Virus record (IMG/VR): IMGVR_UViG_2778261360_000018
Direction: 5' to 3' (one strand)
From: a virus
Lineage: Duplodnaviria > Heunggongvirae > Uroviricota > Caudoviricetes
DNA: 9,346 bases
Both the position numbers and the translations under genes were made by a program. The stretch's first letter is position 1. Every line of letters begins with the position of its first letter. Under the pieces are notes generated by a model. That model saw only the letters and a program-made list of their open reading frames with translations, was not told the DNA's origin and did not search any database. This document shows, piece after piece, positions 1-8,125 of the stretch.

Positions 1-1251
1 GTGCTTACCGATACAAAATTAAAAAACCTCAAGCCGCAGGACAAACTGTACAAGGTCTCCGATCGTGACGGGCTGTATGTAGCTGTGCTTACGTCAGGCA
101 CGGTCTCGTTTCGCTATGACTACCGTATCAACGGTCGCCGCGAAACACTGGTAATCGGGCAGTATGGGCGTGACGGTATCAGCCTGGCAGAAGCGCGAGA
201 AGAACTGATTGCTGCAAAGAAGCTGCTTAAAGCAGGCCAGTCGCCGGCTGAGGCTAAACGTGACGGTATCAAAAAGATTCGTGGTGCCGAGACGTTTGCG
301 GTACATACCGACAGTTATATGAAACACGTCATCCTGGCTGACAGTACCCGCGCAATGAAGCAGGCGGTGATCGACCGTGACATACTTCCGGTTCTTGGCA
401 ACAAAATGATGGCTGAAATTACCACATCGATGGTTCGTGATTTGTGTGACCGGATTGTCGAACGCGGTGGTCGGGCAACAGCAGTACAGGCCAGGGAAAT
501 CATCAGCAGCGTATACCGTCACGCCAATGACCGTGGTCATGGTTTGTTTAATCCTGCGGCTGACATTAAACCTTCGTCTATCGCCATATTTAAACCACGA
601 GAGCGAACACTGACACCAGAAGAAATTGGCCTGTTCTTCCGCACGCTGGATGCCATTGGTGCTATGGGCACTATGAAAATGGCTTTAAAGCTGGTGCTTA
701 TCACTATGGTTCGTAAAGGCGAATTCACCAATGCAACGTGGGATGAAATAGATTTTAAAAAATGGACATGGACAATTCCTTCAGACCGCATGAAGGGAAG
801 CCGGGCGCACGTTATTTACCTGCCTAAACAGGCACAGGATATATTGGTTGGGTTGCAGATGTGCGCTGGTGGAAGTGAATATCTGGTTCCTGGTCGTTAC
901 AATTTCCGGAAGCCATTATCTAATGCCGCGCTGAACTCTCTGATCGACAGAACGGTGAAAATAATAAATGAAGATGGTGAGCATATTCAGGGCTTCACCG
1001 TACACGATATGCGCCGTACAGCCAGTACGTTGTTGCATGAGGCTGGTTATCCTTCAGACTGGATTGAAAAGGCTCTGGCACATGAGCAGAAAGGTGTGCG
1101 CGCCGTATATAACAAAGCGGAATACGCCAGACAGCGCGCCTACATGTTGCAGCAGTGGGCCGATATGATTGATTCCTGGATTAACGGGGAGCATACGGAT
1201 CTGATTCCGTTCTCCCCGTCGAAGTTTGAGAAGTGGATGGCGGGGGAATAA
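1..1251 (+). CDS. int: Tyrosine recombinase / phage integrase, P4-like family
   Basis: 416-aa ORF. N-terminus MLTDTKLKNLKP...GLYVAV...FRYDYR matches the arm-binding domain pattern of P4-like integrases; C-terminus HDMRRTASTLLHEAGY...AHEQKGVRAVYNKAEY fits the R...HxxR...Y catalytic signature. Start is GTG at base 1, so the true start and attachment site may lie just upstream, off-window. Confidence 0.9.
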   Translation: MLTDTKLKNLKPQDKLYKVSDRDGLYVAVLTSGTVSFRYDYRINGRRETLVIGQYGRDGISLAEAREELIAAKKLLKAGQSPAEAKRDGIKKIRGAETFAVHTDSYMKHVILADSTRAMKQAVIDRDILPVLGNKMMAEITTSMVRDLCDRIVERGGRATAVQAREIISSVYRHANDRGHGLFNPAADIKPSSIAIFKPRERTLTPEEIGLFFRTLDAIGAMGTMKMALKLVLITMVRKGEFTNATWDEIDFKKWTWTIPSDRMKGSRAHVIYLPKQAQDILVGLQMCAGGSEYLVPGRYNFRKPLSNAALNSLIDRTVKIINEDGEHIQGFTVHDMRRTASTLLHEAGYPSDWIEKALAHEQKGVRAVYNKAEYARQRAYMLQQWADMIDSWINGEHTDLIPFSPSKFEKWMAGE

Positions 1252-2795: not shown

Positions 2796-3677
2796 TTACA
2801 TAGATGTTTCGTTTAATTCTTCCCGGCGAACGCTGTAAACGTCGGTGGCTTTTGCCAGCAGTTCGTCATCATCTGAAAGTTTTTGTGCAATGTATTTGTA
2901 AGCCTTATCTAGTTCGGAGACAGTGCTGTAATTCATCGCTGCGCTGGTAAAGGCCATCAGCATTTCTTCTGGATCACGGCTATCCGCTTTACGCGTTTGC
3001 TCATCAGGCTTTTTCACTGTTTTAGCGTTGATCAGACTGTTCATTCCCGCAGCAGTGGTCGTTTGCGGAGTAATGTCTCGCTCAACGCGCGGTGCCGTTT
3101 CCTGTAATTCGTCTGGTGTGTAAACACCGAGAAGTACATCAGGAGCGTGCAGGCGAGCCCATCGTTTCGTGCAAAGATAGGCAAGCTGCTGGCGCGGATC
3201 CTGTTCCCACAATGGAGAGTTACGCACTCCGGCTTGCGCCATACTGATGGTAAGCTCACGTGGTTCTGCTTCTCCTTTAAGAACTGCTGACACAGTTACC
3301 GTCAGATTAGGTGATTTATCTGTTTTGCCGTTAACATTCGACCAGTCACCGCTCCAGCGATAATTCAGGCGTGTCGCCAGCAGGCTGGAAGAGGATACGA
3401 CCGCGTTTACCAACTGTGCTTCGTAGCCTAACGTTCCGTTTACCACATGCGTTTTCTGCGCCACGGCGAACGGGTTCATTCCCCACTGTGCCGCCTGCAT
3501 GGTCACCGCCAGGCAATCGGCAGGTTTGCCTTCAAGATGTTTCGGTACAGTTGCTTTGCTTTGTGACATCAACTCCGCGAAACGCACCAGTTGATTCATG
3601 CCCTCGGGGCTGAAGATTGCCGCAGCAGTGCCTACAGTTGCGCCTGGTTGTGATGTGATTGCGATATCATTGCTCAT
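2796..3677 (-). CDS. Single-strand annealing recombinase, RecT/Red-beta (Bet) family
   Basis: 293 aa. By recall of lambda Bet, shares short motifs: ERDITPQ (lambda ERDITPV), GMNPF (lambda GLNPW), WEQDPRQQL (lambda WQSHPKRML). Start overlaps the upstream exonuclease stop (ATGA at 3674-3677). Confidence 0.7.
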   Translation of the reverse strand: MSNDIAITSQPGATVGTAAAIFSPEGMNQLVRFAELMSQSKATVPKHLEGKPADCLAVTMQAAQWGMNPFAVAQKTHVVNGTLGYEAQLVNAVVSSSSLLATRLNYRWSGDWSNVNGKTDKSPNLTVTVSAVLKGEAEPRELTISMAQAGVRNSPLWEQDPRQQLAYLCTKRWARLHAPDVLLGVYTPDELQETAPRVERDITPQTTTAAGMNSLINAKTVKKPDEQTRKADSRDPEEMLMAFTSAAMNYSTVSELDKAYKYIAQKLSDDDELLAKATDVYSVRREELNETSM

Positions 3678-4495
3678 ACATACATATCCTGTTTACGTGC
3701 CCAGTCAGGGCGTTTAATAATTTCCACTCCGCCCCATTCATCGTTGATGCGGCATTCGTGATAGGTATTCAGATCCCGGCGGAACAGAGCGTGCCCGGCA
3801 TCGACATCCGGCGCATCCAGCTCGAACACGCGTACCGGATACCGACCACAATCAATGCTTTCGCTCACGGCAAGAAAGAAAAAACCATGCGGCTGACCAG
3901 TAACCCTCATTGCGCCTTCGCGGTACATTGCGTCCTGCACGTGGTAGCGGAATTCCTCGATGTGACGTGCAAAACGGTCCATATCTGCAACCTTTTTCAC
4001 GTCGACGATCACGTTGTGCTCGTTCAGCCATTTGTCTGGACGAATTCGGCACAACTCACCAGTCTCTTCATCGTTCCAGTACATTGACGCTTCGCAGTAA
4101 CCAGGTGCTTCCAACATCCAGCGTGCAGCCGGGTGAGCCATTGCGCTATCACGCATCAGCTCCAGTTTTCGCCACTGCTCGACATCAAGTACCGTAATAC
4201 CCATATCCGCCACATCACGAAGAAATGCTTCTTCGTCAGCTTTACCTTGTTTTGTCCGACGATCGAATTTCGGTGAAACGATGAAGCGCTTGTCGAATTC
4301 TCCAGGTTCCAGAAGCAGACAGTGCAATGCGGTTCCCATATCCAGTGCAGACTTTTTCTCTTCGTCTTCTGGTGCTGCCTGAACCCATTTAAGAAGCGCC
4401 GGATTCTTGGCAACCATGTCCAGTTGCGACTTACTCACGCCGTCACCGGCGTGGTAGTCTTCGTTGCTGATGTCGAAATAAATTCCCGGTTTCAT
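3674..4495 (-). CDS. PD-(D/E)XK-family exonuclease (RecE/exodeoxyribonuclease VIII-like, DUF3799-type), partner of the annealing protein
   Basis: 273 aa. N-terminal GIYFDISNEDYH, then D/E-rich blocks and IVDVKK resembling PD-(D/E)XK nuclease motifs. Coupled to both neighbours by ATGA overlaps (4492-4495 and 3674-3677). Shine-Dalgarno AGAGGGA upstream. Confidence 0.7.
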   Translation of the reverse strand: MKPGIYFDISNEDYHAGDGVSKSQLDMVAKNPALLKWVQAAPEDEEKKSALDMGTALHCLLLEPGEFDKRFIVSPKFDRRTKQGKADEEAFLRDVADMGITVLDVEQWRKLELMRDSAMAHPAARWMLEAPGYCEASMYWNDEETGELCRIRPDKWLNEHNVIVDVKKVADMDRFARHIEEFRYHVQDAMYREGAMRVTGQPHGFFFLAVSESIDCGRYPVRVFELDAPDVDAGHALFRRDLNTYHECRINDEWGGVEIIKRPDWARKQDMYV

Positions 4496-4791
4496 GCCGC
4501 GTCCCTCTGCCCATCAAGCTGATCAGCCAGATCCCAGCGGGCGATAATTGCCATTGCCTCTCGCCGGTAGGCATCCATCAGTTCTTCGAACTCAGGGCTG
4601 TCTTTAGCAGCCTCCAGTACTTCCTGACGAACGCCTTTGCCTGTTACAACGTCGAAAGTTGAGGCCAGTTGATGAAGCCGGATACTCTCAATCAGTTCAA
4701 CTTGTCGGTCATATAGCTGTTCTGACAGGCGGTAGTCCTTGTCGAATGCCAGCATGATTTTTTGAAGATTTTTCTGCTGATTAACGTTCAT
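4492..4791 (-). CDS. Hypothetical acidic protein (99 aa), early-left operon
   Basis: ATG at 4791 preceded by GGGAGGG; the track's longer 4806 start lacks this. MNVNQQKNLQKIM...PEFEELMDAYRREAM. No Arg-rich N-like motif. Faint resemblance to the lambda Gam C-terminus is speculative. Confidence 0.6.
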   Translation of the reverse strand: MNVNQQKNLQKIMLAFDKDYRLSEQLYDRQVELIESIRLHQLASTFDVVTGKGVRQEVLEAAKDSPEFEELMDAYRREAMAIIARWDLADQLDGQRDAA

Positions 4792-4793
4792 TA

Positions 4794-4946
4794 TCAGCCC
4801 TCCCATATCTCGTTATCGTTGGCCACATCGCGAGCTTCTTTGCTGACGAAAGCCCACTTAATGCCTTCCTGTAAGGTGCGGAACTTCCAGCTCATGAATC
4901 CGCATGCAGTAACGCAGTACCAACCGTTGATGATTTTCCACTGCAT
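4794..4946 (-). CDS. Hypothetical small protein (50 aa), first ORF after the pL-like promoter
   Basis: Below the 60-aa track cutoff; found by hand. ATG at 4946-4944 with GAGGT Shine-Dalgarno 8 nt upstream, stop TGA at 4796-4794. Translation MQWKIINGWYCVTACGFMSWKFRTLQEGIKWAFVSKEARDVANDNEIWEG has an aromatic/hydrophobic N-terminal half. Confidence 0.35.
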   Translation of the reverse strand: MQWKIINGWYCVTACGFMSWKFRTLQEGIKWAFVSKEARDVANDNEIWEG

Positions 4947-4952
4947 AACTTG

Positions 4953-5043
4953 TTACCTCGGTTTGTTACCGTTGAGGTAATAATTATGCGTATTTGGTTT
5001 GATGTCAATAGATATGAGTTAAAAAAATTACCCGTTAGGTAAT
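4953..5043 (-). promoter_or_regulatory. pL/OL-like leftward early promoter with two operator palindromes
   Basis: Minus-strand perfect -35 TTGACA (plus 5003-5008) with an AT-rich -10 candidate near 4980-4988. Palindromes gTTACC-gttga-GGTAAT (4965-4981, over -10/+1) and ATTACC-cgtta-GGTAAT (5027-5043, upstream of -35). Longer 7-bp arms TTACCTC/GAGGTAA at 4953-4959 and 4974-4980. Confidence 0.5.
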
Positions 5044-5050
5044 CGAATAG

Positions 5051-5079
5051 GCAATAAAAAAGCCGCCAGAAGGCGGCTT
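5051..5079 (-). terminator. Intrinsic terminator downstream of the repressor gene
   Basis: Stem AAGCCGCC / GGCGGCTT (5060-5067 / 5072-5079) with loop agaa; on the minus strand it is followed by TTTTATTGC (plus 5051-5059). Lies between the repressor stop (5100) and the pL-like promoter. Confidence 0.6.
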
Positions 5080-5099: not shown

Positions 5100-5684
5100 T
5101 TATTGTTTGTTTTTTTCGTTCTGGTTGATGACAAATTCAATGTAACTTTCGATCTTTGCCTTCTCTGTTTCAGGTAACAATGCGTAGCGCGAGCGATCAT
5201 AGTTGATGGTCGCAGGGTCGTGCGGGTGAATCAGTAATTCATAGCCGTGACGCCCGAATGCGGATGCAACATTCTCCAGGGTGGAAATGGAAACGCTGAC
5301 CTCATTGTTTAACAGGCGGCTGATTGTCACCTGGGCGACGCCGGATGCGCGGTGTAGTTTTCCCTGCGTTGAAAGGTCGCGGCTTTCGCTCATCCAGCGT
5401 TCCAGGTTGTGAGCCGCCAGCTGTCCAATGTCGCTTGGGCCGACAGGCTGAAAACCTTCCTGAGAAAGCGAGCGATCGATATCAAGCCAGTTACGGGGTT
5501 TATTGGCGGCAGCTTCAATTTTTCGCGCAACCTGGTCGCCGATAACCTTCTTGCCAAGAGCCCAGCGGTTTACCAGATTTGCCTGAGTTCCAAGTTTTTC
5601 TGCCATCCGCGTCTGAACACCATTGAATTCACGGTCGATCAAGTCGTTGAGATTTTGCCTGCGGACGTCCTGAATACTTTTCAT
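5100..5684 (-). CDS. Prophage immunity repressor, CI-like by position; two XRE-type HTH domains, no S24 peptidase domain
   Basis: 194 aa. HTH 1 about residues 20-65 (VQTRMAEKLGTQANLVNRWALGKKVIGDQVARKIEAA); HTH 2 about residues 105-150 (LSTQGKLHRASGVAQVTISRLLNNEVSVSISTLENVASAFG). No LexA/CI-type autocleavage module. Divergent from the cro-like gene across an operator-rich region; poor Shine-Dalgarno, as for lambda cI from PRM. Confidence 0.75.
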   Translation of the reverse strand: MKSIQDVRRQNLNDLIDREFNGVQTRMAEKLGTQANLVNRWALGKKVIGDQVARKIEAAANKPRNWLDIDRSLSQEGFQPVGPSDIGQLAAHNLERWMSESRDLSTQGKLHRASGVAQVTISRLLNNEVSVSISTLENVASAFGRHGYELLIHPHDPATINYDRSRYALLPETEKAKIESYIEFVINQNEKNKQ

Positions 5685-6114: not shown

Positions 6115-6219
6115 ATATCTATTCGCACCTTAAAGGTAATAAAAAACCAAATATGGTTGATCTTTTTTTTGTGTCAGCACAAAATAACCGTAATCCCAAT
6201 ACTAATAACAGGGCTTACC

Positions 6220-6420
6220 ATGGAAATCATTACACGTATTGATGCCGCAAAGCGCGGACTTAAACGCTACTACACCGGAAAAACATGTAAGCACGGACAT
6301 GACAGTGAACGCTGGGTTTACAACGGACACTGTGTTGAGTGCACCATGGAATCAAACCGTCGTATCAGGGCAGAGATTAAGCAGATCATGATTAATTCCT
6401 CCCCACAACATTCAAGCTGA
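6220..6420 (+). CDS. Small Cys/His-rich putative zinc-binding protein (66 aa), in the cII position
   Basis: MEIITRIDAAKRGLKRYYTGKTCKHGHDSERWVYNGHCVEC... with C-x-H-x-H-x9-H-C-x2-C spacing. ATG at 6220 chosen over the track's 6157 start, whose N-terminal extension is hydrophobic junk. Family not recognised. Confidence 0.5.
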   Translation: MEIITRIDAAKRGLKRYYTGKTCKHGHDSERWVYNGHCVECTMESNRRIRAEIKQIMINSSPQHSS

Positions 6421-8045: not shown

Positions 8046-8125
8046 ATTACCTGTTGGGTAATAAAATATTCTAAATTCTATTGATTTCGTGTCTTATGTG
8101 GTTTTTAATTACCTTAGGGGGTAAA
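8046..8125 (+). promoter_or_regulatory. Second rightward operator-flanked promoter downstream of P
   Basis: Perfect palindrome ATTACC-tgttg-GGTAAT (8046-8062) upstream of -35 TTGATT (8081-8086); 17-nt spacer; -10 TTTAAT (8104-8109) overlapped by ATTACC-ttaggg-GGTAAA (8108-8125). Same motif family as the OL and OR sites. Confidence 0.45.

Follow-up and report, generated by a model that had tools for sequence, protein, structure and literature searches.

A predicted Gam-like protein and an orphan small protein ahead of the recombination genes of an epsilon15-group prophage

Two small leftward open reading frames (ORFs), encoding proteins of 50 and 99 amino acids (aa; hereafter ORF50 and ORF99), precede the recombination genes in the Caudoviricetes record IMGVR_UViG_2778261360_000018, of which the whole stretch of 9,346 nucleotides (nt) is referred to here as the window. 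The window comes from a phiV10/epsilon15-like prophage (genus Uetakevirus, epsilon15 group), of which it forms the early-left region, and it is about 98% identical to the early region in Escherichia phage phiV10 and related phages. Several findings have been obtained in the present study. First, ORF99 in all likelihood has the fold of, or is homologous to, phage lambda Gam, the protein by which lambda blocks RecBCD, a host nuclease acting on DNA ends. Second, ORF99 probably acts as an inhibitor of the host RecBCD enzyme, judging from profile comparisons, a structural model and the gene context. Third, ORF50 is a conserved and strongly constrained protein for which a host-directed accessory role is our best, low-confidence guess by analogy. 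Thus, what is new here is an unannotated distant relative of a known family, Gam, together with an orphan small protein. Herein, we propose that a pL-like operon supplies a Gam-like ORF99 directed against RecBCD and an ORF50 that would serve as a host-directed accessory factor, and we place the probability of this explanation as a whole at about 0.62.

Resemblance of ORF99 to Gam

ORF99 (11.5 kDa, isoelectric point (pI) 4.71, 19 D+E versus 13 K+R) is close in size and charge to GamS (98 aa, 11.6 kDa, pI 4.99). When a hidden Markov model (HMM) of the ORF99 family was compared with all PDB sequences, GamS (5mbv_A, 2uuz_A) was the best single-stretch match, with an E-value of 0.08 and a collinear alignment of positions 27-87 with 29-91; the matches ranked higher were pentatricopeptide designs, representing sums of repeated 2-3-bit matches. 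The best weak match in Pfam was also Gam (PF06064, E 0.0042), obtained from one of 14 ORF99 family members. Profile-profile comparison of the ORF99 family with an alignment of 20 Gam proteins using hhalign gave probabilities of 82-88% and E-values of 1e-5 to 3e-6, and this alignment pairs residues 31-86 of ORF99 with residues 33-90 of GamS in 56 collinear columns, which span the middle and the C-terminal portion of each protein. The highest control scores were 19.0 (200 column shuffles) and 23.5 (200 block shuffles), and the reversed profile scored 17.8, compared with the 36.6 observed. No signal was observed for either ORF99 or ORF50 against the Rac proteins RacC, YdaE, KilR, YdaF, YdaG and RcbA, and the P22 Abc2 profile (PF11043) matched neither ORF in the Pfam scan.

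The predicted structure points in the same direction. ORF99 was modelled with AlphaFold2 from a diverse alignment of 19 sequences, using no templates and including no Gam sequence, and the resulting model was all-helical, with a predicted local distance difference test score (pLDDT) of 92.8 and a predicted template modelling score (pTM) of 0.77. In a Foldseek search of the whole PDB with this model, the top six matches were all GamS chains (probability 0.95-1.0), five of which superposed at approximately 2 Å over 69-74 columns and one of which, 5mbv_A, at 11.8 Å over 94; the first match other than GamS had a probability of 0.10, and all later ones were at or below 0.13. The predicted ORF99 fold superposes on GamS at 1.8 Å over 76 residues, and the model shows the GamS fold, a helical domain that has a long N-terminal helix.

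The likeness to lambda Gam (GamS form, PF06064; PDB 2UUZ, 2UV1, 5MBV) extends to genetic position. Like ORF99, lambda Gam is an acidic, all-helical protein of about 98 residues, and its gene lies in a repressor-controlled early-left operon ahead of a phage exonuclease and an annealing protein. However, the two proteins share only about 20% identity, below the Pfam threshold; the recombinase partner is of the RecE/RecT type beside ORF99 and Exo/Beta in lambda; and Chi sites abound in the genomes carrying ORF99 and are mostly scarce in those of the lambda type. Lambda Gam attaches to RecBCD as a homodimer and keeps DNA ends from binding; in the structure of RecBCD with GamS, one N-terminal helix plugs the channel of RecB for 3' single-stranded DNA (ssDNA), and the body of the dimer mimics duplex DNA on the RecB arm (PMC5218532). 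The N-terminal 30 residues of ORF99 correspond to the helix that GamS puts into the RecB ssDNA channel, and the ORF99 helix is unrelated in sequence to it. A comparable case has been reported in phi80, whose RecBCD inhibitor GamL combines the Gam fold with a very different sequence (PMC12315714). Like ORF99, GamL (93 aa, pI 4.70) is a sequence-divergent protein of the Gam fold encoded in the same operon slot; no similarity between the two was detectable by HMM (E 0.15) or hhalign (probability 0.4%). What GamL has in common with lambda Gam is the N-terminal helix alone, and in ORF99 the likeness is confined to the middle and the C-terminal portion. In other words, GamL and ORF99 keep opposite parts of Gam and do not resemble each other, which makes ORF99 a third sequence type of this fold.

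The gene context is also consistent with a Gam-like role. In the contigs of distant ORF99 homologues (29-48% identity), an exonuclease gene follows directly wherever the sequence suffices, and RecT comes next in contigs long enough to include it; an extra small ORF lies between ORF99 and the exonuclease in the phages Tyrion and BUCT711. In one contig (locus L012), a KilR gene precedes the ORF99 homologue, giving the order kil, gam-like, exonuclease, RecT, which parallels the lambda order kil, gam, bet, exo. In eight further loci (L014-L017 and L021-L024), the ORF99 homologue follows the gene for a homologue of phi80 Mog (agt), 319-337 aa long and 45-69% identical to it (E down to 4e-127); Mog is annotated as "modifier of Gam / anti-toxin for Gam", and the spacing between the two genes, 7 nt, equals that between mog and gamL in phi80. 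The window contains no Mog gene, and none precedes ORF99 in phiV10 or epsilon15. The window itself has the arrangement of an early-left operon: pL, ORF50, ORF99, exonuclease and RecT, and the relatives keep this order.

Chi sites and alternative readings of ORF99

Several observations weigh against a Gam-type inhibitor. The E-value of 0.08 for GamS in the PDB search is not significant alone, and the ORF99 sequence of the window gave no Pfam match up to E 10, thus falling below the PF06064 threshold, and none in NCBIfam or among the PHROGs with an assigned function. Residues 1-30 align nowhere with Gam and are conserved within the ORF99 family. A first AlphaFold2 run, using a shallow alignment, reached a pLDDT of 66 and yielded no Gam match in Foldseek; therefore, the structural result depends on the depth of the alignment. 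Genes of the Mog family are common in early-left operons, also where no Gam gene is nearby (e.g. Sf6 gp33), so the Mog context is supportive, not specific. Concerning the companion gene, no homologue of known function and no Pfam or PDB relation was detected for ORF50. The initial annotation of this DNA, made from the sequence without database searches, had regarded a faint C-terminal resemblance of the 99-aa protein to Gam as speculative. Profile-profile statistics, the predicted fold and the gene context now support this resemblance over residues 31-86 and leave the N-terminal 30 residues unaligned.

The Chi sites (GCTGGTGG) provide a further objection. There are eight in phiV10 and six in epsilon15, compared with about 1.3 expected, and no shuffle reached such numbers. 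In each of these genomes, all sites lie on the same strand, and no site occurs between about 28 kb and the right end or in the early region containing the recombination module. According to two studies, phages with a RecBCD inhibitor mostly avoid Chi, and those with a recombinase and no inhibitor are Chi-rich (PMC3784561; PMC12315714). The abundance of Chi and the unaligned N-terminal helix both speak against a full, lambda-like block of RecBCD by ORF99. The earlier idea of a nuclease inhibitor is the best putative reading of ORF99, with the simple shut-off known from lambda being less likely. Either these phages represent a rare class combining an inhibitor with Chi, and exceptions of this type, with an anti-RecBCD gene and Chi, have been described (PMC12315714), or ORF99 modulates its target without abolishing its activity, or ORF99 acts on another enzyme.

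These considerations lead to the alternative that survives best, which we regard as unlikely, namely that ORF99 has the Gam fold and that its target is altered or another one. With its N-terminal helix re-specified, the protein might tune RecBCD and not block it, or it might inhibit some other enzyme that processes DNA ends, for instance SbcCD, or a defence nuclease or helicase. The confinement of the alignment to residues 31-86, next to an N-terminal helix that is conserved within the family and foreign in sequence to Gam, favours this alternative, as do the over-represented, co-oriented Chi sites, which suggest that RecBCD-Chi activity still matters to these phages (PMC12315714); moreover, it is the other half of Gam that persists in phi80 GamL, which means that each half can evolve on its own. 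However, the size, charge and predicted overall fold of ORF99 match GamS over 76 residues, and its genomic slot is that of the known anti-RecBCD genes. Similarly doubtful is the broader proposition that a third Gam-fold type tunes or redirects RecBCD, or blocks another end-processing or defence nuclease, in Chi-rich headful-packaging phages, with ORF50 as an early small protein of a new kind, directed at the host or at ORF99 itself.

We consider it improbable that the Gam resemblance is an artefact of helical bundles and that both ORFs encode conserved proteins of an entirely unknown kind. Short acidic helical proteins produce spurious matches, the Foldseek E-values for GamS were 0.2-0.9, and the PDB data used to train AlphaFold2 included GamS. 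Against this stand the shuffled and reversed profile controls, which fell far below the observed hhalign score, and the first rank of GamS in three independent searches, at 1.8-2.2 Å with runners-up at about 5 Å; the gene context, with KilR and Mog as neighbours, agrees independently. Finally, an accessory subunit or regulator of the phage exonuclease/RecT, with ORF50 as a further regulator of the same module, would suit a gene that lies immediately upstream of the exonuclease gene in most contexts examined and overlaps it in the window, but this is very improbable, since the exonuclease belongs to either the DUF3799 or the YqaJ family (YqaJ as in epsilon15 gp35) next to an unchanged ORF99, which argues against a dedicated exonuclease subunit, since other genes are sometimes inserted between the two, as in Tyrion and BUCT711, and since the sole structural and sequence relative of ORF99 is Gam, which acts on a host enzyme. 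A Gam-like inhibitor directed against RecBCD therefore remains the preferred reading of ORF99.

ORF50 and the coding status of both genes

Both leftward ORFs have been confirmed in their coordinates, minus strand and lengths. The initial annotation had named conservation in related phages as one test of its proposal, and both genes are clearly conserved there. ORF50 and ORF99 each occur in 36 phage records, and the genus breakdowns (Escherichia, Salmonella, Klebsiella, Enterobacter) are identical, so the two apparently come from the same 36 records. The pair is present in 559 of 5426 complete E. coli genomes. In every record examined both ORFs are labelled "hypothetical", including the re-annotated epsilon15 RefSeq entry, which gives HHpred notes for many other genes. 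Scans of the two ORFs with Pfam, NCBIfam, PADLOC and PHROGs returned only two PHROG families, 898 (ORF50) and 856 (ORF99), both of unknown function. The ORF99 family is small; when 1.84 billion representative proteins were searched with its profile, 32 clusters were obtained, all of them similar to proteins of enterobacterial phages.

Ratios of replacement to synonymous substitution rates (dN/dS) were calculated by the NG86 method from codon alignments of five divergent relatives. The ratio was 0.08-0.33 for ORF99, with many synonymous changes, and 0.04-0.3 for most pairs of ORF50, one pair reaching 0.94. Conservation together with purifying selection indicates that neither is a chance ORF and that both are genuine coding genes. 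In the first 25 codons of ORF50, dN was 0.02-0.08 and dS 0.16-1.8, corresponding to 2-10 synonymous and only 1-4.5 replacement differences; this excess of synonymous differences indicates that the protein is what is constrained, not the DNA or RNA. The possibility that the invariant 5' half of ORF50 represents a known RNA element was rejected, as an Rfam scan of the window found nothing relevant and no RNA family over this half, and the synonymous changes also argue for constraint at the level of the protein. In Tyrion, an intact ORF50 homologue (L002 3330-3479, plus strand) is unannotated, and over the same DNA the record has a 70-aa gp39 read from the other strand, probably a miscall.

The 50-aa protein does have the aromatic, hydrophobic N-terminal half ascribed to it earlier, with five Trp among its 50 residues. 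This half is almost invariant in the family (MQWK(I/V/F)..G(W/F)Y.VT.CG.MSWKF..L) and after it come a (G/A)I.WAF..K segment, also conserved, and a tail that varies and falls into several distinct types. From its sequence, ORF50 looks like a small, soluble protein comprising a beta-hairpin or sheet plus a helix. A membrane helix was rejected because the hydropathy is too low (maximum 17-residue mean 0.70), and a zinc or disulfide role of Cys11 was rejected because this residue is Leu in two homologues (L015 and L017). ORF50 invariably takes the first or second place behind the promoter, and every ORF50 seen was accompanied by ORF99. ORF99 homologues lack ORF50 in three loci (L012, L013 and L014), and ORF50 was accordingly rejected as an obligatory partner of ORF99.

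A takeover function of the Kil or CIII type had been suggested for this neighbourhood. Position agrees with it, and the sequence comparisons of ORF50 with Kil, KilR, CIII and Gam, whether pairwise, by HMM or profile-profile, were negative. Pairwise scores against lambda CIII, Kil, Ral, Ea10 and Gam lay within the range of shuffled sequences; the N-terminal resemblance to CIII (MQY.I.GW) was dismissed as not significant, with a score of 22 against a shuffle mean of 20.6. Twenty-two members of the ORF50 family gave no Pfam match up to E 10, including Kil and KilR (PF06301, PF27398), and the family HMM gave E-values above 0.2 against KilR and phi80 Kil. In hhalign, the probability was 0% against Kil and 1.2% against CIII, and comparison with the Gam and ORF99 profiles was also negative. 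Like ORF50, lambda Kil, the KilR of Rac and phi80, and lambda CIII are small proteins (43-73 aa) encoded in the early leftward operon just upstream of gam, and in L012 KilR occupies the position directly before the ORF99 homologue. Unlike them, ORF50 is Trp-rich, has a predicted beta-rich N-terminal half and shows no sequence or profile similarity to any of the three. Kil and KilR inhibit cell division by blocking the FtsZ ring, which makes cells filament, and CIII is an inhibitor of FtsH with a central amphipathic helix. By analogy of position, our best guess, held with low confidence, is a host-directed accessory protein in the kil slot; that it might be aimed at cell division or growth is a tentative suggestion resting on the same analogy, and modulation of ORF99 is the alternative.

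The early-left operon and its proposed role

The features of the region are compiled in Table 1. Reading leftward, the two-helix-turn-helix (HTH) repressor gene is followed by the intrinsic terminator, the promoter, ORF50, ORF99, the RecE-type exonuclease and RecT, and further on by genes for an AlpA-like protein, a membrane protein of 38 aa, a PerC-like protein and an MT-A70 methylase. The opposite strand encodes the integrase, at the far end of the window. The exonuclease matches the C-terminal domain of exonuclease VIII. The counterpart of the repressor gene is PhiV10p40 (about 98% DNA identity), and overexpression of the repressor ORF21 of the near-identical phage ZX5, reported to have the same sequence as phiV10 ORF40, blocked lytic genes (PMC9782041).

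Table 1. Positions of predicted genes, regulatory sites and Chi sites (window coordinates unless a phage is named)
Feature	Position	Strand	Remarks
RecT single-strand annealing protein	2796..3677	-	Pfam PF03837 at 1.1e-31
RecE-type 5'-3' exonuclease	3674..4495	-	DUF3799, Pfam PF12684 1.7e-21; phrog_412; NCBIfam PRK09709 positions 606-873
ORF99	4492..4791	-	99 aa; PhiV10p38, epsilon15 gp36, phrog_856; divergent Gam-fold, putative RecBCD inhibitor
ORF50	4794..4946	-	50 aa; first gene of operon; PhiV10p39, epsilon15 gp37, phrog_898
Proximal operator TTACCGTTGAGGTAA	4966..4980	.	Abuts -10 hexamer; covers likely transcription start
pL-like sigma-70 promoter, TTGACA-17-AATTAT	4980..5008	-	Consensus match 10/12; predicted
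Distal operator TTACCCGTTAGGTAA	5028..5042	.	Upstream of -35 hexamer; TTACC-N5-GGTAA motif search
Intrinsic terminator after repressor gene	5060..5079	-	8-bp stem, 6 GC pairs, T-run; annotated terminator in phiV10
Prophage repressor, two HTH domains	5100..5684	-	Pfam HTH_3 + HTH_26; homologue of phiV10 gp40, SPC32H Rep
Chi sites	phiV10 (L009) 6746-27798; epsilon15 (L010) 6443-27918; window 865-872

The description of both ORFs as immediate-early leftward genes would fit the operator-flanked promoter, an arrangement kept in epsilon15 and Tyrion. The TTACC-N5-GGTAA motif occurs five times in the window compared with 0.12 expected, a number reached in none of 200 shuffles. Two sites besides those at pL flank the divergent rightward promoter, and the epsilon15 record annotates ATTACC-N5-GGTAAT as a repressor-binding site around the equivalent promoter. 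The fifth perfect operator-like site, TTACCTGTTGGGTAA, lies at 8047-8061, with the replication gene on one side and the DUF1064 gene on the other; in the epsilon15 record, too, a repressor site is annotated just after the replication gene, with several more elsewhere, and repressor control may reach beyond the two early promoters. The terminator would shield the pL operon from transcription of the repressor gene.

ORF50 has a conserved Shine-Dalgarno sequence, GAGG, at 4956-4959, 9 nt before its ATG. As had been noted initially, the 3' end of ORF50 holds that of the next gene: GGGAGGG (4798-4804) lies within the final codons of ORF50, and TGA-TA-ATG comes next. Begun at another in-frame ATG, at 4806, ORF99 would have 104 aa, but this ATG has no Shine-Dalgarno sequence. 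The earlier description of the 99-aa protein as acidic, helical and encoded directly upstream of the exonuclease also holds, with an ATGA overlap at the ORF99/exonuclease junction and another between the exonuclease and RecT. To judge by these signals, ORF50, ORF99, the exonuclease and RecT are laid out as a translationally coupled early operon.

Several variations of this layout were observed among the relatives. The start codon of ORF99 is ATG in E. coli phages and GTG in relatives from Salmonella, Klebsiella and Enterobacter (L003 2501; L002 3484; L004 3001; L005 2501). Close relatives exchange the DUF3799/RecE-like exonuclease for a YqaJ/lambda-Exo-like one while ORF50 and ORF99 stay (L003 2800-3699; L016 715-1614; E. 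coli ECSC054), and this switching is module shuffling inside the recombination cassette. Optional inserts between ORF50 and ORF99 encode a Mog-like protein (319-337 aa) or a 57-aa ORF, and between the genes for ORF99 and the exonuclease Tyrion carries one for a 45-aa protein with four cysteines and BUCT711 an ORF of 84 aa; the coordinates of these inserts are L015 264-1244, L017 2980-3993, L021-L024 3147-4106, L020 3147-3320, L002 3783-3920 and L006 2797-3051. The exonuclease and RecT are two overlapping ORFs in the window (2796-4495) and most relatives, and the phiV10 RefSeq entry has one fused RecE-RecT coding sequence, PhiV10p37, of 1761 nt (L001 5306-7066), which may reflect a frameshift or sequencing artefact. 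On the rightward side, a small ORF after the cro-like gene (6157-6420, plus strand; homologue of PhiV10p42 and epsilon15 gp40) sits where lambdoid phages have cII and carries a CxHGH...CxxC pattern, which suggests a zinc-binding protein.

Taking these features together, we propose the following sequence of events. Upon inactivation of the prophage repressor, the operator-flanked pL promoter would fire, and a single leftward transcript would permit coupled translation of ORF50, ORF99, the exonuclease and RecT, with a timing of expression that we infer. ORF99 would then most likely sit, presumably as a dimer, on the DNA-end-binding site of host RecBCD, the probable target, and would protect linear phage DNA ends and rolling-circle tails, leaving recombination to the phage exonuclease and RecT. 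By its position, ORF50 might contribute as a host-directed accessory factor comparable to Kil, without sequence relation to it.

The "hypothetical" pair is carried by about one in ten complete E. coli genomes and by all sequenced phages of the epsilon15/phiV10 type. If ORF99 is indeed Gam-like, these phages would possess a complete recombination module consisting of inhibitor, exonuclease and annealing protein, and they would move from the class with a recombinase and no RecBCD inhibitor to the rare class combining an inhibitor with many Chi sites. Such a combination bears on the current model, which ties Chi density to the absence of an anti-RecBCD gene. Moreover, a Gam variant with an N-terminal helix of unrelated sequence would be useful for studies of RecBCD targeting, for recombineering and for probing the defence systems that guard RecBCD, and ORF50 offers a well-defined, strongly constrained target of 50 residues for functional work on small proteins.

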